A stretch of 64,000 nt of DNA from Candidatus Anstonellales archaeon. Lineage in GTDB: Archaea; Micrarchaeota; Micrarchaeia; Anstonellales; J096. How positions within the stretch are numbered: the first letter of the stretch is position 1; each line of letters begins with the position of its first letter. Position numbers and translations under genes: made by a program. Positions 5,311-48,410 of the stretch are shown in pieces. The DNA lies in NCBI GenBank assembly GCA_038896535.1, contig JAWACY010000001.1:262488-326487 (forward strand). Reading direction: 5' to 3'. The notes under the pieces were generated by a model. It worked only from the letters and a program-made list of their open reading frames with translations. It was not told the origin of the DNA and did not search any database.

Positions 5311-7123
5311 CTCTTTTTAGCATGAATGGTTTGTATTCATAACCTCCTCCTTTGTTAAATCTTAATCCAAACTCCAATATTTGTAATCTGCCAGCCTGTA
5401 TAGTGCTTTCAAACATTGCTATGAATGCATTGAAAATATGGAGTAATAACAATATTAATAATATGAAAATATTTATTAAATTGAGCTCTGATGGCAAGCC
5501 AGTATTTATTATTTCTGCTATTATAACTCCAGCTATGCCAATTGCTGCTATTCTCAAATAGCTTGCAGGAACAGAGAAAAATGATGGCAGTTCCATTAAG
5601 CCAAATAGGCCCTCATTCAACAAAACAAGAACAACGCCAGAAACAAAAATTAAAGCAGACATTAAAACATTGCTTGTTAATGCATAAGTTATTATTGATG
5701 AAAATCCTAAAAACCAGCCAGTGCTAGCAAGCATGTGTTTTTTGTCTTTATGCATATAAGCATTTATTATTGATAGTAAGTATCCAAGCATTACATGGGA
5801 AGTGCCAAGTATTATACAAAGAAAGAGAAGGTCATTAAAATTATGTAATCTGCTTAGGCCTTGATAATATGCATTTGCTTCTTTTATTAATCCATAGGAT
5901 TTCAGTTTTTCAAGCCAGAAAACATGGCTTGAACCAAACCATTCGTCGAATATTAAGCCCCAGGCAATACCAGCAAGAGATGAAAATAGCCATATATTAC
6001 ATATATTATTAAGCATCTTGCTGCTCTTAAATAAATTTTTTATAAGCAATGCTATTATTATTGATATCAAAGAATAGCCAACATCACCTATTATCATGCC
6101 ATAAAATATTGGGAAAGTCAAAAAATAGAAGAACGCAGCATTAAATTCATCCCCCCTTGGCAATGAAGAAAAGGAATATGCTAGTTCATAATTTTTTATT
6201 GTTTTTGGCGATTTTATCAATGTTGGCGGGAAATCGCTATGGCCATGCTCCATATCAGAAATTTCTTCTATTAAAACGTTATTCTCGAATTTTGATAAAA
6301 TGTCATTTTTTAATGCTTCATAATCATTATGTGGGACCCAGCCTTCTATTATGTATATTGATTTAGTACCAGAAAAAAATCTTGAAATTTCTGCCCTGTC
6401 TTTTTCTAATAATAAAGAATAGTATAAATCCTTTATTTTTTCTTTTTCATTGTTAAGCATCTCAATCAATGTTTGTTTCTCTTTACTCAGAATTTTTATA
6501 TTAGGTCTTAGTTCTTCAATCCTTTTTTTTGGATTTTTTTCAGGCATTTTTATTGCCTGGAAATCAATGGATTGATTACTTTTTACTATAACAATGATAA
6601 ATTTACCTTTCTTCTCATAAGCCAGAGCATTTTTTAATAAGTTGTTTATTTTATCAACATTTTTATTTTCTTCAACTTTTATTACATAACAAGATAGAGA
6701 TTTTGGCATTTCATCATAGCTAAGAAGGTCTTCTATTTGAGTTAAATTATTTATTTCATTTGTCATACTTGCAATTTCCTTTTCAATTTCTTTTATTCTC
6801 TGCACAGCAAGTTTTAACTTTTCAATTTTCTCTTTTTCTTTTTCAATAATTGACAGTGCAGTTCTAATATTTATATGCTTGAATTCCTCAAATCGATTTT
6901 TAAAATTATAATAATCAGCTATTATGCTTATTTCATTAATTCCCTTTATTAAGGCATCATAAAAAGGCAAAGGGCCCTGCTTTTCAATTCCATTCTTTAC
7001 AATGCTTTTTGTTAAATGCAAAATGCCTCTTTCATGTAGAAAAGCGATTAAATCATATGCTATGCCCTTTGTGCATAATAATCTTATTTTAACCATTCTC
7101 TCTGGTCTGAGCATAAAAACCAC
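5291..7123 (-). CDS. atpI: A-type ATP synthase subunit I (stator a subunit)
   Basis: 610 aa. N-terminal soluble coiled-coil half followed by a C-terminal polytopic membrane domain. Operon position is upstream of K. Confidence 0.8.
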   Translation of the reverse strand: MVFMLRPERMVKIRLLCTKGIAYDLIAFLHERGILHLTKSIVKNGIEKQGPLPFYDALIKGINEISIIADYYNFKNRFEEFKHINIRTALSIIEKEKEKIEKLKLAVQRIKEIEKEIASMTNEINNLTQIEDLLSYDEMPKSLSCYVIKVEENKNVDKINNLLKNALAYEKKGKFIIVIVKSNQSIDFQAIKMPEKNPKKRIEELRPNIKILSKEKQTLIEMLNNEKEKIKDLYYSLLLEKDRAEISRFFSGTKSIYIIEGWVPHNDYEALKNDILSKFENNVLIEEISDMEHGHSDFPPTLIKSPKTIKNYELAYSFSSLPRGDEFNAAFFYFLTFPIFYGMIIGDVGYSLISIIIALLIKNLFKSSKMLNNICNIWLFSSLAGIAWGLIFDEWFGSSHVFWLEKLKSYGLIKEANAYYQGLSRLHNFNDLLFLCIILGTSHVMLGYLLSIINAYMHKDKKHMLASTGWFLGFSSIITYALTSNVLMSALIFVSGVVLVLLNEGLFGLMELPSFFSVPASYLRIAAIGIAGVIIAEIINTGLPSELNLINIFILLILLLLHIFNAFIAMFESTIQAGRLQILEFGLRFNKGGGYEYKPFMLKRGEKYGS

Positions 7124-7128
7124 TAAAA

Positions 7129-7503
7129 CTAATTAAAGTTGCTTATTTCTTCTATTAATGCATTAATTGCTTTTTTATTTATGCCATTTTTTGTAATCTC
7201 CCTTATTAATTTCTCCTTTTCCTGTTCACCAATTTCTGCTATTTTCCTTAATTCCTCTTCAAATTCTTTATTTTTTTCCATTTTTATTTTTTCTAATTCC
7301 TCTTTTTTCTTTTCTTCTAACAATGCCATCTTTTTTTGCATGCTGTTTTTTATTTTTTCTGCTTCTTTTTTTGCTTTTTCTATAATTATTTCAGCTTCTT
7401 CTTCAGCTTTTTTTATTGTTTCAATTTCTTTTTCTATTAAGCCATGCTCATTTTTTTCTTTGCTTTGTTTTTTTGCTACCATATTGCTATATAATAAATG
7501 CAA
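7129..7503 (-). CDS. atpH: A-type ATP synthase subunit H (peripheral stalk)
   Basis: 124 aa K/E-rich coiled-coil protein, first gene of the operon. Confidence 0.5.
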   Translation of the reverse strand: MHLLYSNMVAKKQSKEKNEHGLIEKEIETIKKAEEEAEIIIEKAKKEAEKIKNSMQKKMALLEEKKKEELEKIKMEKNKEFEEELRKIAEIGEQEKEKLIREITKNGINKKAINALIEEISNFN

Positions 7504-7598
7504 ATCTTTAAAATAATGAGTATGTAAATATGCATAATTGGATAAATAAAATGATTAAATAAAATATGATGGTAAATGAAAATATGCAGGGCGTTAAT

Positions 7599-7934
7599 AT
7601 GAAGCAAGCAGTAATAATAAATAAAGATTTGAAAATGGGGAAGGGAAAGATATGCGCACAAGTTGCGCATGCTTCATTGCAAGCTTTTTTAAATGCCAGC
7701 TTGAATGATAGGGAGATATGGCTTAATCAAGGAAGTAAAAAAATTGTATTAAAAGCAACAATGCAGGAAATGATTGATATATTAAGGAAATCAGAGCAGC
7801 TTGGTATAGCCAATGCAATAATAAGAGACGCTGGCTTAACACAAGTAAAACCAGGGAGCCTAACTGCCATTGCACTTGGCCCTGCAGAAGATGAAATAAT
7901 AGATGCATTAACATCTACATTGAAATTACTATGA
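7599..7934 (+). CDS. pth2: peptidyl-tRNA hydrolase, archaeal PTH2 type
   Basis: KQAVIINKDLKMGKGKICAQVAHASL... matches the PTH2 family core. Start is uncertain (in-frame ATGs from 7566), so the 5' end is the weakest part of this call. Confidence 0.75.
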   Translation: MKQAVIINKDLKMGKGKICAQVAHASLQAFLNASLNDREIWLNQGSKKIVLKATMQEMIDILRKSEQLGIANAIIRDAGLTQVKPGSLTAIALGPAEDEIIDALTSTLKLL

Positions 7935-8092
7935 TATTTTTATATGCTATAATATCTTGTAGGTTTAAAATAAAAGGCATAAATTTAAAATAAACAAGCA
8001 TAAAAATTAAAATAAATAGGTGACAATGCAAGTAAAACGTAAAAATGCAATTAAGACAATTAGATTAAGGAAATTATATTAGATTAAAGGAA

Positions 8093-8839
8093 TTATACCT
8101 CTTCAATAGAGAATAAATTAGCAGATTTTTCTATTTTTGATAATGCCTGTTTTAGATTATTAACCATTTTTTTTGCATCTTTATACTCTTCTGCTCTTAT
8201 TATTGCCATATACCTTGGAGCACCTATATATTTTATTTCTGCATACTTTCCAGCTTCAATGAGGGCATTTTTTATTTCCTCAACGCCATTTTTTGAGTAA
8301 GTCTCTATGTTTATAATAAGCTTTAATTCTATTAGTTTCTTTTTGTATGATTTTTTGACTAATTCTTCTATCATAGATGCAACTTTGCTATCTGTAATAA
8401 ACTCTTCTGCTATTTCTTTTCCTTCATCATATATATCAAGCATGAAGTCATGTAAATTATCATACTGCTCTAAAATAGCATTTTCTATTTCTTTTGCAGT
8501 TATTTTTGATCTGGCCTTTTTTATTGCTGTTTCTATTATTTTCCTTGCCTTTTTCGTATTTTCATAATCTTCAAATGCCTTTTTCCTCTGTTCTTCACTG
8601 ACCCTCTTTAATGATATTGTTGCTACCTTTTTATTTTTATCAACTTCTATTACAAGCGCAGCAGTTCTCATACCAACTTTTACATAATCACCTATATTTT
8701 TTACCCATTTTGATACGATCTCACTTACATGCAAAAATCCTTCATAATTTGGAAATTCCTCAAGCTCTGCTATTGCTCCATATGGCATTACGCTTTTTAT
8801 TTTTATAATGACAAGTTTTCCTATTTCTGGGTCTTGCAT
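8093..8839 (-). CDS. eif2a: translation initiation factor aIF2 alpha subunit
   Basis: N-terminal S1 domain (GKLVIIKIKSVMPYGAIAELEEF...GFLHVSEI) and the typical helical/alpha-beta C-terminus. Start is placed at the internal Met that overlaps the S27e stop (TGATG). The longer ORF-track N-terminus is out of the S1 domain. Confidence 0.8.
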   Translation of the reverse strand: MQDPEIGKLVIIKIKSVMPYGAIAELEEFPNYEGFLHVSEIVSKWVKNIGDYVKVGMRTAALVIEVDKNKKVATISLKRVSEEQRKKAFEDYENTKKARKIIETAIKKARSKITAKEIENAILEQYDNLHDFMLDIYDEGKEIAEEFITDSKVASMIEELVKKSYKKKLIELKLIINIETYSKNGVEEIKNALIEAGKYAEIKYIGAPRYMAIIRAEEYKDAKKMVNNLKQALSKIEKSANLFSIEEV

Positions 8840-9006
8840 CAATATTCCTCTAAAATTTCTCCATTTACTACATGCGCTTTTCCACCAGTCGGTTCGAGCA
8901 AAAGAGCCCCACAACCCAAGCATAGAACTTCTTTTGTTGCATGAGAAAACGATACCTGTTCATTGCCGCATTCTTTACATTTTAATTTTATAAATTTGCT
9001 TGCCAT
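8839..9006 (-). CDS. rps27e: 30S ribosomal protein S27e
   Basis: Manually translated 55 aa: [56 protein letters not shown]4 zinc ribbon, and the canonical operon position between L44e and aIF2alpha. Below the ORF-track size cutoff. Confidence 0.75.
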
Positions 9007-9010
9007 AATA

Positions 9011-9292
9011 TTACCTCTTTATTTCGAGTTTTTTCTTTGTCCTTGTTCCTATCACTCTTTCCATTTTTTTATTGCATTTATTGCATGTTAAAACTATTTT
9101 CTGCCTCTTTCCCTGTTTTTTTACTTCTTTTTTTCCTGCTCTCTTGCCTCCAAAACCTCTAAGCTTCCTTTTATGCCTTAATTCTCCTATTGCCAAGCTT
9201 CTCCTGCTTCCTTTTGAGGCTAATTTAACTTTATGCAATGTATGCTCATTGCAATATTTACAAAACGTCCTTATTTCTGCTGGATATTCCAT
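9011..9292 (-). CDS. rpl44e: 50S ribosomal protein L44e (eL42)
   Basis: 93 aa. [12 protein letters not shown]...[16 protein letters not shown]...CNKCNKK zinc-ribbon pattern of L44e. Confidence 0.85.
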
Positions 9293-9437
9293 TTTACCAC
9301 CAAAATTATTTCAAAAATTTATTCGTTAATATATTTATAAGCGAAAAATTTTTATATAAGAATTACTAATAAAAGTTAAGGTGAACAAAAATGGCAGCAA
9401 AGAAGAAAGCAAAGAAGGCAGCAAAGAGAAGATAAAT

Positions 9438-11724: not shown

Positions 11725-12720
11725 TTATCTTACTATATCTATTATCTGCTGAAATACTGTTATTGGGAGTGCTCCGCTTATTACTACTGCGCTATTATCT
11801 CCATCTGTTACAAGCTGGAATAAAGGCTGTCCAGTATTTGCAGCATATGCCATATTAATACTCTTTAATTGCTCTTTTTTGCTTTGGCTCAGCCCGTTTT
11901 TATTGAATATTACAAATGTTGGTGTGCCTGATGCATAAAAGCTATATGCTATTTGTGTATGCTCATTTATAACATTCAAATATTTTTTCTCATTATAGCA
12001 CTGTTTCCATTTATCTACATCAAGCCCCAAATCTGAAGCTATTTTTTCATATGTTGTATCACTTAATTGTGATTGATTACTGAAAAGAGCATCATGGTAT
12101 TGCCAAAATTTGCCCTGCTCTTTAGCGCATTCAGCAGCATTTGCTGCAGGCATTGCCTGTGCATGTATTTGCTCTAATGGCAGATGCGCATAATAGAACT
12201 TAACTAAGCCCCTATCAACATAAATCTGTTCAAATTGCTTCTCTGTCTGATCAAAAAAAGCTTTGCAAAAAGGGCATTGGAAATCACTGAATTCAATGAC
12301 TATAACGCTTGCATTATCATTTCCCTTAAATGCTGCACTTTCTATTTCCCTTATTTTATTATTTACATACCTCTCTGAGCTTGATAGATTTTTTTGTTCT
12401 TCAATCTGCTTTTTTATATCAGATAATTGCTTTATTATATCACTAACATTTTCTTCTTTTCCTGGAGTTAAGCCAATGATTTTTGTATAATTTTCATCAG
12501 TATAAATAATGAGGTCTTGTCCATTAAATGAATAAACGAGCCTTATCATATTTACTTTGCTAGCATTAACAAATGTTGGTTTTTGTACATTCTGTAATTC
12601 TGCTATTGAATTTAGCACATTTGTTATGTTATTTACTTTTTCCTGCTTTATTTCTGTTTGCGTGCATCCGGCTAAAATAACTAGTAATAAAATAGTCGAT
12701 ACAAAAAAATATTTTTGCAT
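11725..12720 (-). CDS. DsbA-family thiol:disulfide oxidoreductase, lipoprotein-like signal
   Basis: 331 aa. Thioredoxin CPFC active site in FSDFQCPFCKAFF. N-terminal signal with LAGC lipobox-like motif. Confidence 0.7.
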   Translation of the reverse strand: MQKYFFVSTILLLVILAGCTQTEIKQEKVNNITNVLNSIAELQNVQKPTFVNASKVNMIRLVYSFNGQDLIIYTDENYTKIIGLTPGKEENVSDIIKQLSDIKKQIEEQKNLSSSERYVNNKIREIESAAFKGNDNASVIVIEFSDFQCPFCKAFFDQTEKQFEQIYVDRGLVKFYYAHLPLEQIHAQAMPAANAAECAKEQGKFWQYHDALFSNQSQLSDTTYEKIASDLGLDVDKWKQCYNEKKYLNVINEHTQIAYSFYASGTPTFVIFNKNGLSQSKKEQLKSINMAYAANTGQPLFQLVTDGDNSAVVISGALPITVFQQIIDIVR

Positions 12721-13414: not shown

Positions 13415-14083
13415 TTATGTTAAGAATGATTTTATAGTATATAATACATGTTCAATGCGCAGTTTTGAAAAACCAACTTTTCTATTTTTGAAATGAAAAT
13501 TAACATAGCAATAATCAAAATCTGCTTGCTTTATTATATCAAAAAGTATTTTCCATCCTTCTTTTACTATCCTTCTCTCATCTATGTTTTTTAAAATGCC
13601 TTTTCTTAATCCAAAAAATCCTGTCATGGGGTCTTTGCACATCTTTCTTTTGTTAAATAATAATGAAATATTAGCAAGCATTTTTGCTACGTATGCAATA
13701 ATTTTTCTTTTTAGAGGAAACACATTTCTATTTCCACTACATATTACTATATTACATTTATCTAATTTTTTTACTACATCCTTTATTTTATTTATGGGAT
13801 GCTGAAAATCAGCGTCAATAACAACAACATAGTCATATTTTGCTATCTTTATTCCATTCAAAATGTCCCAACTTAAATATCCCTCGCCCTTTGTTAATGT
13901 TATTTTTTTATCTTTTAAAGCAATGCCTTTTGCTATATTAAATGTTTTATCATTGCTTGCATCAACAATAACAATCTCTGCATTTCTGTATAAGCGCCTC
14001 AGTGCCTTTAATAATTTCGATATTGTTTTCTCTTCATTCTTTGTAGGCACAACTATGGAAAAATTCATATCTCTGGCTTGCAT
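13415..14083 (-). CDS. family 2 glycosyltransferase (dolichyl-phosphate sugar synthase-like)
   Basis: FSIVVPTKNEE...IVIVDASNDKT...VVVIDADFQHP, the GT2 DxD architecture. Confidence 0.75.
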   Translation of the reverse strand: MQARDMNFSIVVPTKNEEKTISKLLKALRRLYRNAEIVIVDASNDKTFNIAKGIALKDKKITLTKGEGYLSWDILNGIKIAKYDYVVVIDADFQHPINKIKDVVKKLDKCNIVICSGNRNVFPLKRKIIAYVAKMLANISLLFNKRKMCKDPMTGFFGLRKGILKNIDERRIVKEGWKILFDIIKQADFDYCYVNFHFKNRKVGFSKLRIEHVLYTIKSFLT

Positions 14084-15087
14084 ATTAACACTTCTTCAAA
14101 TCTTTTATCAATGCCTATTTTGTAATCATTGCAAATATTTAATAATAAATCTGCCAGCTCTTTTTTATCCTCTTTTTTATGATAAGCGCTCATAACAATA
14201 ATTAGCTTAAATCTCCTTATTGTTTCTTTAGCCCCTTTTAATGCCTGTTTTTCATATCCTTCAATATCCATCTTTATAAAATCAACACTTTTTATTCTAT
14301 GCCTTTTTATAAAATAATCAATCTTCAATACATTTATTTTTTGCCTTTTATTATATGAATGCTTGTTAATAAAATTAACATCTAATGAATGGCCGCCAAT
14401 GTTCAATTTATTAATATATAAATAACCACTTCCATTATTTTCTCCAACTGCAAAATTAAATGCCTTTACATTACTGGCCTTAAATAAGCCAATCATATTT
14501 TTCAAGACCATAAAGTTATTTCTTTCTGGCTCTATTGCATATATTTTTCCTTTTGGATTTAAATAAGAAGCAAAAATAGAAAAAATGCCAATATTAGCCC
14601 CACAATCAATTACAATCTTGCCATTTTTAATAAATTCCCTTGCATGATACTGATCTTTTACTACAATTTCACTAAAAAATAGCCATAAAAATGTTTTTTT
14701 ATAGGGCAATTTATTAAGCCCATTAAGTTTATCTATTTTATAATAATTATTGATTGACTTATAAAATTCATTACATTCTTTACTATCTTCTATTATGTTA
14801 AGCATTTCATTAGCTCCTAAACTTATTTCTTTTTCATACATTTTTAATTTAGATAATGCATAACCTGTTTTTACATTAATGCCATATATCATCAAATTTA
14901 TCAAATTTTTTAGTTTATCTATATTTTTATCAGCATTATGAATATTTTTATGCAATGTAGAAAATATTATTTTTATTACATTAATGTCATTAAATGCATT
15001 TTTTCTAATCTCATTAATTAGTGAGTTAAATTTTAGGGAATCCATGCAAAATAACAAAAAGGTAATATTTTTAAATATTTCCGCCAA
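14065..15087 (-). CDS. FkbM-family methyltransferase
   Basis: VIDCGANIGIFS SAM-binding motif typical of FkbM-domain MTases. Confidence 0.65.
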   Translation of the reverse strand: MAEIFKNITFLLFCMDSLKFNSLINEIRKNAFNDINVIKIIFSTLHKNIHNADKNIDKLKNLINLMIYGINVKTGYALSKLKMYEKEISLGANEMLNIIEDSKECNEFYKSINNYYKIDKLNGLNKLPYKKTFLWLFFSEIVVKDQYHAREFIKNGKIVIDCGANIGIFSIFASYLNPKGKIYAIEPERNNFMVLKNMIGLFKASNVKAFNFAVGENNGSGYLYINKLNIGGHSLDVNFINKHSYNKRQKINVLKIDYFIKRHRIKSVDFIKMDIEGYEKQALKGAKETIRRFKLIIVMSAYHKKEDKKELADLLLNICNDYKIGIDKRFEEVLICKPEI

Positions 15088-15092
15088 AATAA

Positions 15093-15449
15093 ATGAGAGG
15101 TGTTTTTATGGTTGAAAATGGCAAATATAAAATATTATCTGCCCTAGTGATAGCCATACTTTTAATCAGTGTGAATTTGGTTTTTGCTGCTGATACAACT
15201 AATGTAACTAATGCACTTGGGAGTCTTAAAACTATAATATGTGGATTTTTTGGTGCTTTAATAACAGTTGCAATAGTTTTAGCAGCAATTGCATATGCAG
15301 CAGGAAATGTAATGGGTGCTGAAGCAGGAGCAAGAGCAAAAGTATGGGCAACAAACTTAATAATGGGAGCAGCAATAGGAGTAGTTATATATATTGTCGC
15401 ACCACTTGTCTTAAGTACTTTGTCTGGTCAAAGTGCGTCTGGTTGTTAA
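15093..15449 (+). CDS. small secreted membrane protein, VirB2/TrbC (conjugative pilin)-like architecture
   Basis: 118 aa. Sec-type signal (…VNLVFA|ADTT) followed by two G/A-rich hydrophobic helices separated by a short basic loop. Confidence 0.45.
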   Translation: MRGVFMVENGKYKILSALVIAILLISVNLVFAADTTNVTNALGSLKTIICGFFGALITVAIVLAAIAYAAGNVMGAEAGARAKVWATNLIMGAAIGVVIYIVAPLVLSTLSGQSASGC

Positions 15450-15750
15450 ATTTGAAATGAAATCATTTAATAAAGCAAATGCTGCTTTATTGGCAAGCAT
15501 TTGTTTTTTTCATTATTTACTTGCAATTTTTGTTGCTGCTTTTGGACCAAAAGAATTTAGAAAAATAGCAAGTTTTGGTTTTTTATTTAATATTGTAATT
15601 AATATTGTAGTAATTCAGAATATTGTCATTTTACTTAATAACAGATTTTTAGCATTTATAATTGCTTACCTTATATTTTTACTTTGCTTCGCATGGTTTT
15701 ATTATAAAAACACCATCTTCAATGCTACTGCTTTTATAAATGTTAGTTAA
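15433..15750 (+). CDS. small membrane protein (hypothetical, about 3 TM)
   Basis: 105 aa hydrophobic ORF. Its 3' end overlaps the convergent membrane-protein gene. Confidence 0.3.
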   Translation: MRLVVKFEMKSFNKANAALLASICFFHYLLAIFVAAFGPKEFRKIASFGFLFNIVINIVVIQNIVILLNNRFLAFIIAYLIFLLCFAWFYYKNTIFNATAFINVS

Positions 15751-17109
15751 ATTTTCTTCATTCGTGATGTAACTAATACTATCATTGAAAATTTCACAGT
15801 ACTGCTTTAATAGTAATATGTCCGCACCCTGAAATGTATCCAACTGGAGGGAAGTTAAATAGTATGTTAAATCTTTAATATCTTTTTTTGGCCTTATTGG
15901 ATGGGTCATTATAACATTATATGAAAATACCGGCGTTTCCTTTAAAATTGAATAAATACATAAAATATGAGAACTATAGAAAAATACTAATTTATCGTTT
16001 GCTACTCCACTAATTATTTTGTTTGTTAAGTCATGGTTGCAATTAAAATAGGCAAGAGTTAAGTCTGGCATTGCTTTTATGTCTGGAAAAATACCTGGTA
16101 ATGTTATTATAAGTAAAAATGATAATATAAAAAGCATGGAAAAAAACGAAGCAAGCTCTTTATTATTTTTATTTTCATTGGCTATAGCAATAGCATAAAT
16201 AATAAATGGTGCAGTTATTCTTGAACTAATATAAAAAAATCCACCAACAAAAGGAATTATAAAAAATAATGAAAGTAAAAATAAATATTGTACTCTTATA
16301 ACTGAATTAGTTTTGAATAAATAGAAGAAAAGAGCAAATCCCATAACAGCGTATAGAGTAAAAAAAGGAAGCGCTAGGTTTTGAGAAAAGTTTCTCCAAC
16401 CGCCATAAATGATATCTCTATAATAATCTATATTGTCCTGGTTATATTTGCTTATGTAAATGTAATAGGCTGATATTATGAATAGTAAGAATGCGCATAA
16501 TATTGAATAATAAATATTTTTTGTTTCTTTTTTTTCAAATGATTCTATTGCCCTTATGCCATAATAAAGAAAGCCAATCAAAGGATGTGTAACATAAAAT
16601 ATAGGAACTGAGATTATAGCATTTATGAAATTAAAATCAAGCGCCAAAAAAAGGAAAAACACTATTTGTGAAAAAGCCCATGCAGGCATATAATGAAAAG
16701 TAAAAAAACTTGCTGAAATAATGAATGAAGCAGCGTAAAAATAAAATGAATAGGCATTTCTTGATTTTAAGAATAAATAAATAGAATAAGCAAGCAATGG
16801 AACAGATATTAAAGAGAATAAAAAAACAATTGCATAAGGTTCATTTATATAAGTTGATATAAAATAAGCGAAAAGATGGAATATTGAAGCAGGGGCCAAA
16901 GGAGAAAATATAAAAATATCAGGATATCTTTTGCTTAAAAAAACAGCGGCTAAATGGTGATATGCGTCGCTATTCATGTAGTAGTTAAAATAAAATATAT
17001 AGATGAGCATTATTATAATACACAAATAAGCAAAGATTTTTGTTTTTTCCAGGTTTATTTTACTTTTTGCCATAATAAAACCCTGAAAACCAAATTTTAT
17101 AAAAAACAA
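15679..17109 (-). CDS. polytopic integral membrane protein (possible GT-C-like glycosyltransferase/polymerase)
   Basis: 476 aa, more than 10 predicted TM segments rich in F/Y. Lies within the glycosylation gene neighbourhood. Confidence 0.45.
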   Translation of the reverse strand: MFFIKFGFQGFIMAKSKINLEKTKIFAYLCIIIMLIYIFYFNYYMNSDAYHHLAAVFLSKRYPDIFIFSPLAPASIFHLFAYFISTYINEPYAIVFLFSLISVPLLAYSIYLFLKSRNAYSFYFYAASFIISASFFTFHYMPAWAFSQIVFFLFLALDFNFINAIISVPIFYVTHPLIGFLYYGIRAIESFEKKETKNIYYSILCAFLLFIISAYYIYISKYNQDNIDYYRDIIYGGWRNFSQNLALPFFTLYAVMGFALFFYLFKTNSVIRVQYLFLLSLFFIIPFVGGFFYISSRITAPFIIYAIAIANENKNNKELASFFSMLFILSFLLIITLPGIFPDIKAMPDLTLAYFNCNHDLTNKIISGVANDKLVFFYSSHILCIYSILKETPVFSYNVIMTHPIRPKKDIKDLTYYLTSLQLDTFQGADILLLKQYCEIFNDSISYITNEENLTNIYKSSSIEDGVFIIKPCEAK

Positions 17110-28016: not shown

Positions 28017-30059
28017 TCACTTTAAAGCAACCGACAAATAACATTTATTGTAATCATTTTCTGTTAAACTTGAATACAAAACTGGTTCTGCAATGAAATT
28101 ACTATAAATTGAACTTGGCTCTTTGATATCTAATATTACTGCATTAGCCTTTGTCATTGCTTGATTGCAAAGTTCCATTATTTGCTGACTTCCGTTTATT
28201 ATGCATCTGCCGTCTTTTATTTCTACTACTTTAGCATTCAATACTTTTGCAATCTCATTACCGCATGCCTTTGCTTTCTCTGATTTTATTACAACGTAAG
28301 ATGGCAGGTTTAGGTCAATTGCTTTTTTAAAATCACTTATTGACCCTTTATTAATAGCATAATCAAAAGTTAAGAAAGCCGAAACAGAGACGGAGATAAA
28401 TAATATAATTGATATTAAGAGAATAAATACAAGGAAATAAATCCTTCCGCTCCTTTCCTTCTTCTTATCAATATTTTTTATACCAGCATAAAAGCCAACA
28501 ATGGAAATCCATAATAAGAATGATGCAAATGAAAGACCAATTAATAACGCATTTGTAATTGCCAATGTTTGTAATGCCTGTGTTTTTTGCTCAGGATTAG
28601 TTGGCATTAAGGGCGATATTGGCTTATAAAGTGCCCTGAAATAATTGATGAATGCATTTGTTATAACAACATTTAATGACGTCTTCTTCTGCGAGGCAAA
28701 AGACAGTAATGTTGATGAAAAGTTTGTATACTCACTCTTAAAAATGCTTAAAGAGTCTGGGCTCATTTTCCCTGTAATGGCATTGTTCAGACTTTTTCTT
28801 TTTTCAGTTATAGTCTGCTTTAACAGGGGGTCTGAAATGTCATTTATGTATGTAATATAAAGGGCTTCTGCCCTCTTTGTTTCCTCATCAAAGGCAGCAA
28901 GCTGTTCTTCATAACTTTTTGTTTTATTTGAAATGAGATTTATGGTGTTAGTTAGATTTTTCACCATACTCTCTATATTAGTAAAATTGTTTGACTCCAA
29001 TAAACTGCTTATGTTTGTCTTTAACTCATTGACAAGTGCAATGCTTGAGCTGTAATTTTTATCATCTATTCTTGAAGTAATGCTTTTTGTCCTGTTATAG
29101 AGTGAATCCCAACCATTTAATATAGCATTAAGCTGATTGCTATATTTCAATCTCAATAACCTATTTTCTTTATTCCCAACTCTTTCATGGATTGATTGTA
29201 TAAATGAGGCCTTTATACTATCAAAATCTTTTAAAGGTTTGGATGTGTTTATTACATAAGATAATTGTTTATCTATATTATCAAATGCAGTATTATTTAT
29301 TATCAGCTCATCGCATATTCCATAACAAGTAGGACATTCGCTTATTTTTGGATTGCCATTTTCATCTCTTGGGTATCTAAATCTATTCTGTTTTAAGGCT
29401 TTAATGCTGTTGTTCATTGATTTGAGAGCATCATAAGCTTGGGCGTATGCTTGTCCTATAAGTAAAGGCTCTGTTATTGTTAATGCCTGCTTTATTGCTG
29501 AAATTTTTGAATCTATATTATAAGAATCGTTAAAGAATTCTTCTATATAAGGCATTATTGTTTTATAGTCATTGCATCCTATGGAACTTGAATATAACTG
29601 ACATACAACAACAGCATATCTTTGGTAAACAGAAGAAAAACCAGCAGGATCTTGTGGGTTTGGTAAGTTCTCTCCCAAAACCTTCCTGCATCCAAGTTCT
29701 TCATTGCCAAGCCCATCTTGCCTGCTCTTATTCAGTGCATCCAGAGAAGTTGATATAAGAGAAACAATAGAACTTAAGTTAGTTGGATAGTATTTTTGCA
29801 CATAAAAATTGTATAATACCATTTCGATTTCTTCATCCTTATCTATTACAGATTCATTCTTAACTAACAAAGCAACCTTATTGTTTATATAAATAAAAGT
29901 ATAAATGCTATTATTATAAGTAAAGTTTTCCTGCTCTATTGTTGCATTCGTTTCATTATCAAGTAAATAATCACTAACGTTAAGTGCAAAAACAACGCCA
30001 AAGTTAAGTAAAAAGATACATAATAAAAGAAAAATACCAGCGTTTTTTATCATGAACAT
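28017..30059 (-). CDS. large extracellular glycoprotein-like hypothetical protein with C-terminal TM pair
   Basis: 680 aa. Signal peptide, many N-x-S/T sequons, two TM helices near residue 500, then a Cys-containing C-terminal domain. Confidence 0.45.
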   Translation of the reverse strand: MFMIKNAGIFLLLCIFLLNFGVVFALNVSDYLLDNETNATIEQENFTYNNSIYTFIYINNKVALLVKNESVIDKDEEIEMVLYNFYVQKYYPTNLSSIVSLISTSLDALNKSRQDGLGNEELGCRKVLGENLPNPQDPAGFSSVYQRYAVVVCQLYSSSIGCNDYKTIMPYIEEFFNDSYNIDSKISAIKQALTITEPLLIGQAYAQAYDALKSMNNSIKALKQNRFRYPRDENGNPKISECPTCYGICDELIINNTAFDNIDKQLSYVINTSKPLKDFDSIKASFIQSIHERVGNKENRLLRLKYSNQLNAILNGWDSLYNRTKSITSRIDDKNYSSSIALVNELKTNISSLLESNNFTNIESMVKNLTNTINLISNKTKSYEEQLAAFDEETKRAEALYITYINDISDPLLKQTITEKRKSLNNAITGKMSPDSLSIFKSEYTNFSSTLLSFASQKKTSLNVVITNAFINYFRALYKPISPLMPTNPEQKTQALQTLAITNALLIGLSFASFLLWISIVGFYAGIKNIDKKKERSGRIYFLVFILLISIILFISVSVSAFLTFDYAINKGSISDFKKAIDLNLPSYVVIKSEKAKACGNEIAKVLNAKVVEIKDGRCIINGSQQIMELCNQAMTKANAVILDIKEPSSIYSNFIAEPVLYSSLTENDYNKCYLSVALK

Positions 30060-46613: not shown

Positions 46614-48410
46614 CTATTCAGTTATTCTAGCATATAATCTTATTCTATCTATTCCTATAGCCCCATTTTGATTTGATGTGCTGAATTCAACATAATCAAC
46701 TTGTGATTGGAAAGGCAAGCCATTTGCAATGCCAGGAGTTAATAATACTTCTTCTCCAAGAACAGCGAAAACTCCTGATTTGCCTTCTGGATCTTGTCTT
46801 GTCCTTGCATCTAGTAATGCTATTCTTATTTGCTTGCCAAAAACATCAATATCTGCTGGCATAGAATCAACGCTAAACCAGACAGCAGGGCTTATCATTC
46901 CATTTCTTTCAAATGTGGCTTTAACCCATGTGTCGTTATTGTAATGTAAAACATCTTCAACCCTAACTACGATGTCTTCATATACAAATGGCTGTGATTC
47001 TGTTGCAATTGATACTGCCTTTAATTCATAAAACCTTGCTGATAAAGATGCTTGTGATGTTGTATCAACACTGTATAACATATAATCTTTTCCAAATAGC
47101 CTATAAGTAAATGCTGCTGATTTTAGCAATATATTTACTTGCTCATCTCTTTTATTTATTGCCGATATTGTATTTGTCAATGGTTGATTAAATTGTATAT
47201 CGACATAAGCAACATCAGATACAGGGCTTACTTTGACAAAGCTCAAGCTTGGAGAAAATGCATTATAATAGTAAGTATTGCCAATATACTTAGGGAACCA
47301 AGTAAATGAATTATTGTATTGCTCAATCATCATTCCAGCACTGTTTTGTAGTGTCAATGAATCTCTATTGAATATAACTCCATCATTTACACTAAGAACA
47401 GTTGCGCAATAAATGAACTCATTATAAAGTCTGGTAAAGCACTCTCTGCTGCCCTCTTCTAATCTTGAGTATGTCCTCTGCAATGTTTCTGATAAAAGTT
47501 CTAATGTTGCTGCTGAATAATATGTTGTCGATACTTCTGAAACCCTTAATGCATATGGGCTTTGTCCTATTATGTCACTAACAACATACCACCTGCCTTG
47601 ATAAACAGATTGCTGTGATAAAGGATCATAAACCTTTGTTGTTTGAGTTATTGCTGATGCTGGATCTGCAAAAGAAAGCTCTATTGCTAATGGGTTGTAT
47701 GGAGCAACAAATACTGCAAAGTATTGCCTAGTATTGCATCCATACAATGAAAAGAAATCATTTAATGGCGTTGTTTGAGAAATATCAGAGTATTTAAGTA
47801 TTGGCATGCCCCTTGGGTTTATGTCTTCAAATGTTAAATCGCATCCATCAACGTTTATGCTTGAATCCAAATTTACTGTCGTTGTATTTACTAATGAATA
47901 GCCACCAGATGAGCTTCCAGATGAACTTCCTCCTGAAGAGCTTCCTGAAGAACTGCCAGAAGAACTGCCAGAAGAGCTGCCAGAAGAGCTGCCAGATGAA
48001 GAGCTGCTAGATGAGCCACCAGATGAGCTTCCAGATGAACTTCCTGAGGAACTGCTTGAAGAACTCCCCCCTGAAGAGCTGCTAGATGCGCCTCCAGATG
48101 AGCTTGAGCTTCCGGAACCAGAAGAAGATTGGCCTGGTTGTCCATTATCAACTAATAATAATTTTTCTGCATTATTTTGTGGTTGTAATTCTTTTCTTCC
48201 ACAAGAGCTTGTAAGCGTTAGAAAACCAAGAAAAGCCCCTAAAGCTAAACCCTTAGCCCATTTTTTTATTCCATTATTTTTGCCATTTCCTTTATCATGT
48301 TTAAAAGAAGCGCTAAAGCCCCTATTTTCACTATTGCCCCTATCTTCACTATTTTCTATATTGTCACTAAATAATAAATTTGATTTATTTGTTTTATTTT
48401 TAAAAACCAT
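46614..48410 (-). CDS. large cell-surface protein with Ser/Gly-rich linker
   Basis: 598 aa. N-terminal TM anchor, about 100 aa of (S/G)n low-complexity linker, and a large beta-rich C-terminal domain. Confidence 0.5.
   Translation of the reverse strand: MVFKNKTNKSNLLFSDNIENSEDRGNSENRGFSASFKHDKGNGKNNGIKKWAKGLALGAFLGFLTLTSSCGRKELQPQNNAEKLLLVDNGQPGQSSSGSGSSSSSGGASSSSSGGSSSSSSSGSSSGSSSGGSSSSSSSGSSSGSSSGSSSGSSSGSSSGGSSSGSSSGGYSLVNTTTVNLDSSINVDGCDLTFEDINPRGMPILKYSDISQTTPLNDFFSLYGCNTRQYFAVFVAPYNPLAIELSFADPASAITQTTKVYDPLSQQSVYQGRWYVVSDIIGQSPYALRVSEVSTTYYSAATLELLSETLQRTYSRLEEGSRECFTRLYNEFIYCATVLSVNDGVIFNRDSLTLQNSAGMMIEQYNNSFTWFPKYIGNTYYYNAFSPSLSFVKVSPVSDVAYVDIQFNQPLTNTISAINKRDEQVNILLKSAAFTYRLFGKDYMLYSVDTTSQASLSARFYELKAVSIATESQPFVYEDIVVRVEDVLHYNNDTWVKATFERNGMISPAVWFSVDSMPADIDVFGKQIRIALLDARTRQDPEGKSGVFAVLGEEVLLTPGIANGLPFQSQVDYVEFSTSNQNGAIGIDRIRLYARITE

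Follow-up and report, generated by a model that had tools for sequence, protein, structure and literature searches.

A phylum-wide family of VirB2-like hairpin proteins in Micrarchaeota with a glycosylation module as its recurring gene neighbour

The small protein encoded at positions 15093–15449 of the forward strand in a 64-kb stretch of DNA from Candidatus Anstonellales archaeon (the window, by which the whole analysed stretch is meant) belongs to a family of VirB2-like proteins that is chromosomal, phylum-wide in Micrarchaeota, and so far unreported. The recurring and evolutionarily conserved partner of this family is a glycosylation module made up of a GT2 glycosyltransferase and a PMT-like GT-C enzyme, frequently joined by a methyltransferase. 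The explanation preferred here, tentatively and with a confidence somewhat short of even, is that the protein is a Sec-exported, disulfide-stapled hairpin of VirB2 type, whose ends are glycosylated by the adjacent module and which would act as a membrane or filament subunit at the cell surface without a canonical type IV secretion system (T4SS). No description of Micrarchaeota together with VirB2 was found in the literature searched, and nothing describing the hairpin family was found in the literature on DPANN archaea with VirB4 or on Micrarchaeota with type IV secretion.

The order Anstonellales is placed in the class Micrarchaeia of the DPANN kingdom Nanobdellati. The window has a G+C content of about 31%, and its housekeeping genes, among them those for ribosomal proteins, RNA polymerase subunit D, the thermosome, the A-type ATPase, and LonB, are archaeal. 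From its sixth codon the product of the open reading frame (ORF) of 118 amino acids (aa) is the same as NCBI QXS91_00880, a protein of Candidatus Anstonellales archaeon on a 419-kb contig. The gene, its upstream region, and the parts of its product are the following.

15093–15449, forward strand: VirB2/TrbC-like small hairpin protein, ORF of 118 aa; the probable start at ATG 15108 gives 113 aa.
15046–15107, no strand assigned: divergent region of 62 bp shared by the methyltransferase-GT2 unit and the hairpin-protein unit, with TATA-like TTTTTAAATA and Shine-Dalgarno (SD)-like GAGGTG.
15108–15188, forward strand: predicted Sec signal peptide MVENGKYKILSALVIAILLISVNLVFA, presumably cleaved at VFA|AD, as judged from the sequence, the model helix 11–32, and the hhalign alignment.
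15189–15242, forward strand: mature N-terminal exposed segment ADTTNVTNALGSLKTIIC, Thr-rich, with one N-V-T sequon, ending at the conserved Cys50.
15243–15416, forward strand: transmembrane (TM) hairpin, with TM1 at residues 51–72, the loop GNVMGAEAGARAKVW at 73–86, and TM2 at 87–108.
15417–15446, forward strand: exposed Ser/Gly-rich C-terminal tail TLSGQSASGC, ending in the conserved Cys118.

Reading of the upstream sequence gives the SD-like GAGGTG at 15097–15102 and the TATA-like TTTTTAAATA at 15068–15077, and both elements favour the start at ATG 15108, with a product of 113 aa. The intergenic region 15046–15107 is probably a divergent promoter region for both units.

The sequence-only reading had described in this ORF an N-terminal hydrophobic segment ending in VFA|AD and two Gly/Ala-rich helices, and all of these are present. 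In the sequence a VFA|AD site of the signal peptidase I type comes after the hydrophobic segment, and hhalign places the signal segment opposite the signal peptide of VirB2, with its A-x-A|Q site. The [KR]-[GA] site of prepilin peptidase after a short charged leader was not found in the N-terminus MVENGKYKILSALV..., and Pfam and NCBIfam scans gave no match of the protein to archaeal type IV pilin families. The exposed N-terminal stretch carries T35, T36, T39, and the single N-V-T, and both TM helices, joined by the loop GNVMGAEAGARAKVW, are Gly/Ala-rich. The AlphaFold2 model built on a 98-sequence alignment has a mean predicted local distance difference test (pLDDT) score of 89.5, with helices at residues 11–32, 36–73, and 76–111. 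In both the sequence and this model the architecture is that of the VirB2/TrbC type, as had been proposed from the sequence, with a signal segment, two helices, a short charged loop, and a length of about 100–120 aa.

Exhaustive phmmer search at E<=0.001 yielded 286 family representatives at 50% identity, and by profile search the family comprises at least 591 clusters at 90% identity, with source names that are all Micrarchaeota, Micrarchaeia, Anstonellales, Bilamarchaeaceae, or "ainarchaeum". When one genome each of 185,579 species was scanned with the motif ETRARA[NST]VW, 234 relatives were confirmed, and the best 80 of these are all labelled Micrarchaeota, Anstonellales, Bilamarchaeaceae, or "ainarchaeum". 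The scan of IMG/VR viral contigs revealed no relatives, and tblastn of the hairpin protein against PLSDB plasmids gave no match. The consensus order of the family is a signal peptide, AL..LC, TM1, YAAGQ..GAETRARA.VWA, TM2, P, a variable tail, and Cys, where Y68, G71, E77, R81, W85, P104, and C118 are nearly invariant, and at least three hydrophobic segments are found in 199 of 208 members.

Conservation is distributed very unevenly along the protein. Mean pairwise identity across the family is 44% in TM1, 76% in the inter-helix loop, and 47% in TM2, while the exposed ends are poorly conserved (22% for the N-terminal segment and 17% for the tail). The family occurs as tandem arrays of 2–5 copies in 34 loci, and paralogues within one locus share about 90% identity in the core, against about 50% for the N-terminal segment. 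The Ser+Thr share is 20% in the exposed N-terminal segment and 17.5% in the tail versus 11.7% as background. A Cys before TM1 and a Cys in the C-terminal tail are both present in 197 of 208 distinct members, both are missing in 6, and only one is kept in 5; a Cys stands at the column of Cys118 in 91 of 98 members. Because the Cys pair co-varies, it implies a disulfide that would join the two exposed ends, Cys50–Cys118, either within one subunit or between subunits. Tips that vary and can be modified, on a packing core that is conserved, would be expected of the subunit of a surface-exposed polymer or oligomer, and less so of a housekeeping enzyme subunit.

The likeness to conjugative pilins was estimated by profile and alignment methods. 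The Pfam profile TrbC (PF04956) matches the window protein with E=8.5e-5 and 23.1 bits over profile positions 10–92 of 98, and T4SS_pilin (PF18895) matches it with 14.5 bits and E=0.039, the gathering threshold of the latter being 26.6 bits. Among 98 family members TrbC is matched at E<0.01 by 20 (best E=1.1e-6), T4SS_pilin at E<0.01 by 26 (best E=1.8e-5), and NCBIfam TrwL by 10, with single matches to TIGR03745, to the Mbov_0395 pilin-like family, and to CedA. The family alignment was also compared by hhalign with eight annotated VirB2/TrbC proteins from conjugative plasmids, and the match had 76.8% probability, which is below the level usually accepted as proof, with E=2.1e-5 and 84 colinear columns spanning the signal-peptide cleavage region, both helices, and the C-terminal tail; the loop of the family appeared as an insertion about 9 residues longer than the VirB2 loop. 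Reversal of one partner gave E values of 0.07–0.22, and the best of 34 column shuffles reached E=0.0024. Because these reversed and shuffled controls score far worse, the VirB2 similarity appears to be order-specific; it is weak and compatible with either remote homology or convergence on one architecture. According to these data the pilin likeness proposed in the sequence-only reading is borne out as architecture and as a weak order-specific sequence relation, and no curated family threshold is reached.

Searches of structures were less productive. The sequence search of PDB, whether by single protein or by family profile, returned only a KdpA segment (E=0.03–0.2) and TrwL (E=0.18), and no CedA1 or TedC chain was found at E<=10 when the family profile was run against all PDB chains. 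The inovirus coat proteins Gp8 and Coat B (Pfam E=0.01–0.04) were rejected as relatives, since each has a single helix and the similarity is confined to the signal peptide and the first helix of the hairpin protein.

The neighbourhood of the family was studied in 74 non-redundant related loci, which include at most 10 kb of flanking DNA on each side of the gene and hold about 1,590 genes clustered de novo. The components of the glycosylation module were found in these loci with the following frequencies.

PMT-like GT-C, about 491 aa: adjacent in 18 of 74 loci, within three genes in 21 of 74.
GT2, about 229 aa: adjacent in 6 of 74, within three genes in 18 of 74.
S-adenosylmethionine (SAM) methyltransferase: adjacent in 0 of 74, within three genes in 9 of 74.
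Second GT-C, TMEM260-like: adjacent in 1 of 74, within three genes in 6 of 74.

The PMT-like neighbours carry Pfam PMT/PMT_2, and their profile matches yeast Pmt1. The GT2 partners have about 223–235 aa and in 34 of 43 cases no predicted TM helix. The commonest order is GT2< MT< GT-C< PIL> (MT, methyltransferase; PIL, family gene), where the family gene is divergent. The GT-C/GT2 linkage is kept in different arrangements among family proteins that are about 40% identical: all genes lie on one strand in L004, the GT-C stands between two family copies in L007, and L009 and L011 are divergent. In the sequence-only reading the glycosylation cluster around the ORF was recognised correctly, but it was taken as mere context, and the 74 loci show it to be an evolutionarily conserved partner.

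In the window the hairpin gene is flanked by an FkbM methyltransferase, a GT2, a small membrane protein, and a 476-aa polytopic protein, all as previously read from the sequence, and a DsbA-like gene lies somewhat further away.

13415–14083, reverse strand: GT2 glycosyltransferase without membrane helices (PF00535, E=2.1e-22).
14065–15087, reverse strand: FkbM-family SAM methyltransferase (PF05050, E=5.2e-23; TIGR01444, E=4.9e-29), probable start at ATG 15045.
15433–15750, forward strand: small conserved multi-TM protein, with an alternative start at ATG 15457.
15679–17109, reverse strand: 476-aa polytopic membrane protein with about 12 predicted TM helices and a C-terminal soluble domain.
11725–12720, reverse strand: DsbA-like thioredoxin-fold lipoprotein (PF13462, E=1.2e-24; PF01323, E=1.7e-18).

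The window GT2, for which no TM helices were predicted, belongs to the GT2 cluster that recurs beside the PMT-like genes (hmmsearch E=1.2e-60) and is likely a polyprenyl-phosphate-sugar synthase, with a presumed substrate. The methyltransferase slot is occupied by FkbM in the window and by a different SAM methyltransferase at the same place in 9 related loci. The small multi-TM protein has syntenic counterparts of 30–39% identity in L012 and L013 and no family match, and its gene is probably co-transcribed with the hairpin gene.

The 476-aa gene is convergent, on the other side of the hairpin gene, with syntenic homologues P0279 and P0280. BLASTP of its product against the PMT-like neighbours gave nothing significant, and the link appears only with the 39-sequence profile of the PMT-like cluster: hhalign of a 3-sequence profile of the 476-aa protein against it gave 81.6% probability, E=1.1e-5, and 241 colinear columns, while the next best of all gene clusters reached 2.4%. 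The protein is therefore regarded as a probable, unproven divergent PMT-like GT-C glycosyltransferase. The search for its relatives yielded only three homologues, and the AlphaFold2 model from the 3-sequence alignment had pLDDT 47 and was left unused.

Two further observations concern this end of the locus. The small multi-TM ORF of the forward strand and the 476-aa gene of the reverse strand overlap convergently by 72 nt at their 3' ends (15679–15750), and both are conserved in relatives; the overlap may be a mis-set stop region or a true antisense overlap. In L001 a second 476-aa polytopic protein (7878–9308, reverse strand) lies beside two family copies; it has in common with the window protein only N-x-D-A-Y after TM1 and a C-N-H motif, and hhalign gave no link to either polytopic group.

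The DsbA-like gene, whose product has a lipoprotein-type N-terminus, is located 2.4 kb from the hairpin gene. It might tentatively be supposed to oxidise the Cys50–Cys118 pair, and this association is speculative because the gene is not a recurrent neighbour in the other loci.

Taken together, the preferred explanation would operate as follows. The Sec system would export the precursor, the signal peptide would be removed after VFA, and the mature protein of about 86 aa would form a two-helix membrane hairpin with both ends outside and with the invariant loop G-A-E-x-x-A-R-A-x-V-W on the cytoplasmic side. The disulfide Cys50–Cys118, suggested by co-variation, would tie the exposed ends and replace the head-to-tail cyclisation of TrbC/VirB2. 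As gene linkage suggests, the neighbouring module would glycosylate the short Ser/Thr-rich exposed ends: the GT2 without membrane helices would load sugar onto polyprenyl phosphate at the cytoplasmic face, the methyltransferase may modify the polyprenyl-linked sugar, and the PMT-like GT-C, here probably the 476-aa protein, would transfer the sugar to the hairpin protein outside the cell. The product would be a subunit exposed at the surface, its packing core conserved and its tips variable and coated with sugar, forming either an abundant membrane oligomer or a protein-lipid filament of the VirB2 type, with assembly independent of any neighbouring VirB4, VirB6, or coupling protein. A role as S-layer (surface layer) stalk or anchor was rejected, as the exposed parts have only about 10–20 residues. 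The sequence-only reading had offered as its fallback a membrane protein that stands alone or belongs to an uncharacterised surface structure, and this proved closer to the data than its T4SS idea.

Several observations weigh against the preferred explanation. The window protein scores below every curated family threshold, with 23.1 bits against the gathering threshold of 27.9 bits for TrbC, and unrelated membrane families score alike, since Yip1 is matched by 21 members, cytochrome bd subunit II by 18, and MarP by 11, so hydrophobic composition contributes to the weak pilin matches. The hhalign controls also destroy the signal-peptide and two-helix architecture and do not separate homology from convergence. 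Foldseek with the hairpin model returned nothing at E<=0.001, and fold searches give generic helical hairpins, with VirB2-type pilins not ranked above thousands of others; because such a simple hairpin matches generic hairpins only, the fold search speaks neither for nor against a pilin. The putative role as glycan acceptor is suggested only by gene order and Ser/Thr composition, and polymerisation is likewise presumed. The N-x-S/T sequons are not clearly enriched in the exposed ends (0.0068 versus 0.0050 per residue), about two thirds of the loci have no GT-C within three genes, and the 476-aa protein gave no direct GT-C family match in Pfam and PDB searches.

The absence of any curated match, the similar numbers of weak hits to unrelated membrane families, and the longer loop are also what would be expected from a convergent hairpin of unrelated role, for instance a membrane stabiliser, a channel-forming oligomer, or an envelope organiser, with glycosylation synteny that was inherited and has no functional meaning; other conserved neighbours, such as the KaiC-like ATPase, the Roadblock-like 109-aa protein, and PmbA, look functionally unrelated as well. 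Such convergence is considered unlikely, since independent pilin profiles of different T4SS classes (TrbC, T4SS_pilin, TrwL, TIGR03745, Mbov_0395, and CedA) are matched and the full-length colinear hhalign match is clearly above the reversed and shuffled controls. Furthermore, the GT-C/GT2 adjacency outlasts both rearrangement and, in the window lineage, replacement of the GT-C and methyltransferase types, which argues for selection on the linkage. Another rival is a protein that serves the glycosylation machinery and is not its substrate, namely an accessory membrane subunit, either an anchor or stabiliser of the GT2, as are DPM2/DPM3 for DPM1 in the eukaryotic dolichol-phosphate-mannose synthase, or a part of a polyprenyl-phosphate-sugar flippase, the role of GtrA or ArnE/F in three-component glycosylation systems. 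DPM2/DPM3 and the GtrA-type flippases are small multi-helix membrane proteins which serve a GT2 synthase and a GT-C user of polyprenyl-phosphate sugar, and the window GT2 is devoid of membrane helices like DPM1. GT2 partners without a TM helix need a route to the membrane, the tight and deep conservation of the order GT2< GT-C< PIL>, in which one divergent intergenic region is shared, is in keeping with a complex, and the loop, the only part facing the cytoplasm, is the most conserved (76%), as a docking site would be. Nevertheless, a cleavable-looking signal peptide, a co-varying extracellular Cys pair, and hypervariable exposed ends, in which the arrays of 2–5 copies mainly differ, set the family apart from DPM2/DPM3 and GtrA and fit a surface-exposed product better; many arrays lie in loci without GT2 or GT-C, and Pfam and NCBIfam scans revealed no sequence similarity to the GtrA, DPM2, and DPM3 families. 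The accessory role is regarded as unlikely, if a little less so than convergence.

The least probable of the readings weighed here is a genuine T4SS pilin, conjugative or Ced/Ted-like, with the VirB4-like ATPase and the VirB6-like channel encoded elsewhere in the genome. Remote similarity to the TrbC, VirB2, TrwL, and T4SS_pilin profiles and to real VirB2 is in agreement with it, the inspection covered 64 kb of the 419-kb contig, and in Thermoproteales the TedB ATPase may sit several genes from tedC (PMC9905601). In the window Walker A motifs among ORFs of at least 70 aa were found only in the A-ATPase A subunit and LonB, which gives no candidate secretion ATPase, and neither in the window nor in the 74 loci do VirB4, VirB6, VirB3, or a coupling protein adjoin the family genes; the earlier statement that no VirB4-like ATPase is near the ORF therefore holds, and a link to DNA uptake of the Ced/Ted type finds no support in the neighbourhood. 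The large P-loop proteins of the 74 loci are of the RFC, Cdc48, Cdc6, ABC or RLI, and AAA_14 types, with one exception in L026, a 585-aa HerA/DUF87-type ATPase with a weak TrwB_AAD_bind match, encoded upstream of two family genes at a distance of 2.4 kb. An FtsK/HerA-type ATPase thus occurs within 10 kb in no more than 1 of 74 loci, and this one was judged an unrelated insertion and not a pilin partner, because it lies between AcnX subunit genes, with AcnX-small and Hjc standing between it and the family genes. Unlike pilins of mobile elements, the family is chromosomal, occurs throughout the phylum, and has no relatives in viral contigs; for the closed Mia14 genome the published inventory of secretion systems names type IV pili, Sec, and Tat and no T4SS (PMC5498576), and in Patescibacteria, by contrast, VirB2-like genes are near virB4 in 1135 of 1948 assemblies (PMC12102498). 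The idea that the locus serves conjugation or Ced/Ted DNA import is unsupported.

Some features of the surrounding loci are described here in their own right. In L026 the region 5797–9052, which lies between the genes for the large and small AcnX subunits, encodes the ATPase and two paralogous proteins (about 250 aa), with a divergent TrmB-family regulator just upstream, and is possibly a small integrated element. In many Micrarchaeota (L009, L011, L032, L034, L035, L037, and others) the family gene has a conserved trio immediately 3' of it on the same strand, namely a KaiC-like ATPase (PF06745/DUF7504; about 237 aa), a Roadblock/LC7-looking protein (about 109 aa) without a Pfam match, and PmbA/TldD. 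The KaiC-like ATPase, adjacent to the family gene in 16 of 74 loci, was set aside as an assembly ATPase, as it is paired with the Roadblock-like protein and PmbA and the trio is absent from the window; to our knowledge there is no precedent for a KaiC-like ATPase as an assembly motor. L030 (5670–9884) and likewise L076 and L097 encode, near family arrays, a Cdc48/AAA+ ATPase (about 1,400 aa) that is split by an intein containing a LAGLIDADG homing-endonuclease domain.

Among the known systems the TrbC/VirB2 pilins, such as A. tumefaciens VirB2, RP4 TrbC, and R388 TrwL, are alike in their length of about 100–120 aa, Sec-type signal peptide, two Gly/Ala-rich helices, amphipathic N-terminal segment, and short charged inter-helix loop. 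The ends of TrbC and VirB2 are joined head-to-tail by a peptide bond, whereas in the Micrarchaeota family they are apparently joined by a disulfide. The family also differs from these pilins in its loop, which is longer by about 9 residues and in conservation far exceeds the other parts of the protein, in being chromosomal and phylum-wide and not on mobile elements, and in its neighbours, which are the GT2 and GT-C module instead of VirB4, VirB6, VirB3, and VirB1. As a separate observation, in the hhalign alignment the conserved Cys before TM1 is aligned with the Cys in NNICTF of A. tumefaciens VirB2.

Dedicated GT-C glycosylation systems are alike in that the substrate gene lies beside a polytopic GT-C and the exposed targets are Ser/Thr-rich. 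The TfpW/PilO enzymes of P. aeruginosa are encoded beside pilA, and in actinobacterial O-mannosylation by Pmt and Ppm1 the GT-C uses a polyprenyl-phosphate sugar made by a GT2. The glycosylated pilins of the P. aeruginosa type differ in being type IV pilins with class III signal peptides, and the glycosylation of the Micrarchaeota protein is a proposal based on gene linkage.

The nearest parallel in lifestyle is offered by Patescibacteria of the candidate phyla radiation (CPR), ultrasmall host-dependent organisms whose VirB2-like arrays (PF04956, PF18895) are found with no relaxase and no mobile-element context and are reported to be essential for epibiotic growth (PMC12102498). The tandem arrays are divergent in both groups, with 2–11 copies in Patescibacteria and 2–5 in the Micrarchaeota family, and by the inclusion rule of that study (PMC12102498; i-Evalue<0.001 and profile coverage >50%) the window protein would be counted as such a pilin. 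The Patescibacteria genes accompany a VirB4/VirB6/VirB3 set (PMC12102498), and no such set was found near the Micrarchaeota family genes, which in addition are archaeal and distinguished by the Cys pair and the GT-C link. A bolder reading extends this parallel and proposes that in Micrarchaeota, akin to Patescibacteria, VirB2-like arrays at the host interface became uncoupled from VirB4/VirB6 and form a disulfide-stapled protein-lipid filament or membrane conduit, glycosylated by a dedicated GT2 and GT-C module, whose invariant loop would bind lipid head groups and which could serve host attachment or even the uptake of lipids by organisms unable to make those of their own membranes; this is decidedly unlikely as it stands.

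CedA1 and TedC are, like the family, archaeal, chromosomal VirB2-like hairpin pilins, and the signal peptide of TedC is cleaved by signal peptidase I (PMC9905601). The Ced/Ted loci hold the VirB6-like CedA/TedA and the VirB4-like CedB/TedB (PMC9905601), neither of which was found beside the Micrarchaeota family, and only one family member has a marginal match to NCBIfam CedA (E=0.0045). The family thus differs from both the Patescibacteria arrays and Ced/Ted in having no ATPase or channel genes and in its Cys staple and GT-C linkage.

Two other proteins of the window are of note as candidate surface glycoproteins. The 598-aa protein at 46614–48410 of the reverse strand has a lipobox-like LTLTSSC followed by a low-complexity Ser/Gly linker of about 110 residues (SSSGSGSSSSSGG...) and no Pfam match, and may be a surface lipoprotein with heavy O-glycosylation and so a further substrate for PMT-like enzymes. 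The 680-aa protein at 28017–30059 of the reverse strand has a signal peptide, very many N-x-S/T sequons, several Cys, and C-terminal hydrophobic segments, with no Pfam match, and may be an N-glycosylated protein of the surface or of S-layer-like type.

The family bears on how DPANN archaea make contact with their hosts and draw on them, a matter for which Patescibacteria provide a bacterial parallel. It brings testable features, namely the predicted cleavage site, the Cys pair, the invariant loop, the Ser/Thr-rich tips, and the GT2/GT-C/methyltransferase neighbourhood, and because Micrarchaeota co-cultures exist, the predictions are directly testable. If the family forms a filament without a VirB4 motor, this would be a new mode of assembly for the VirB2 pilin class and its first glycosylated example. 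If instead it belongs to the glycosylation machinery, the VirB2-like hairpin would have membrane roles beyond secretion, which would bear on the proposal that pilins arose from ordinary membrane proteins (PMC9905601).

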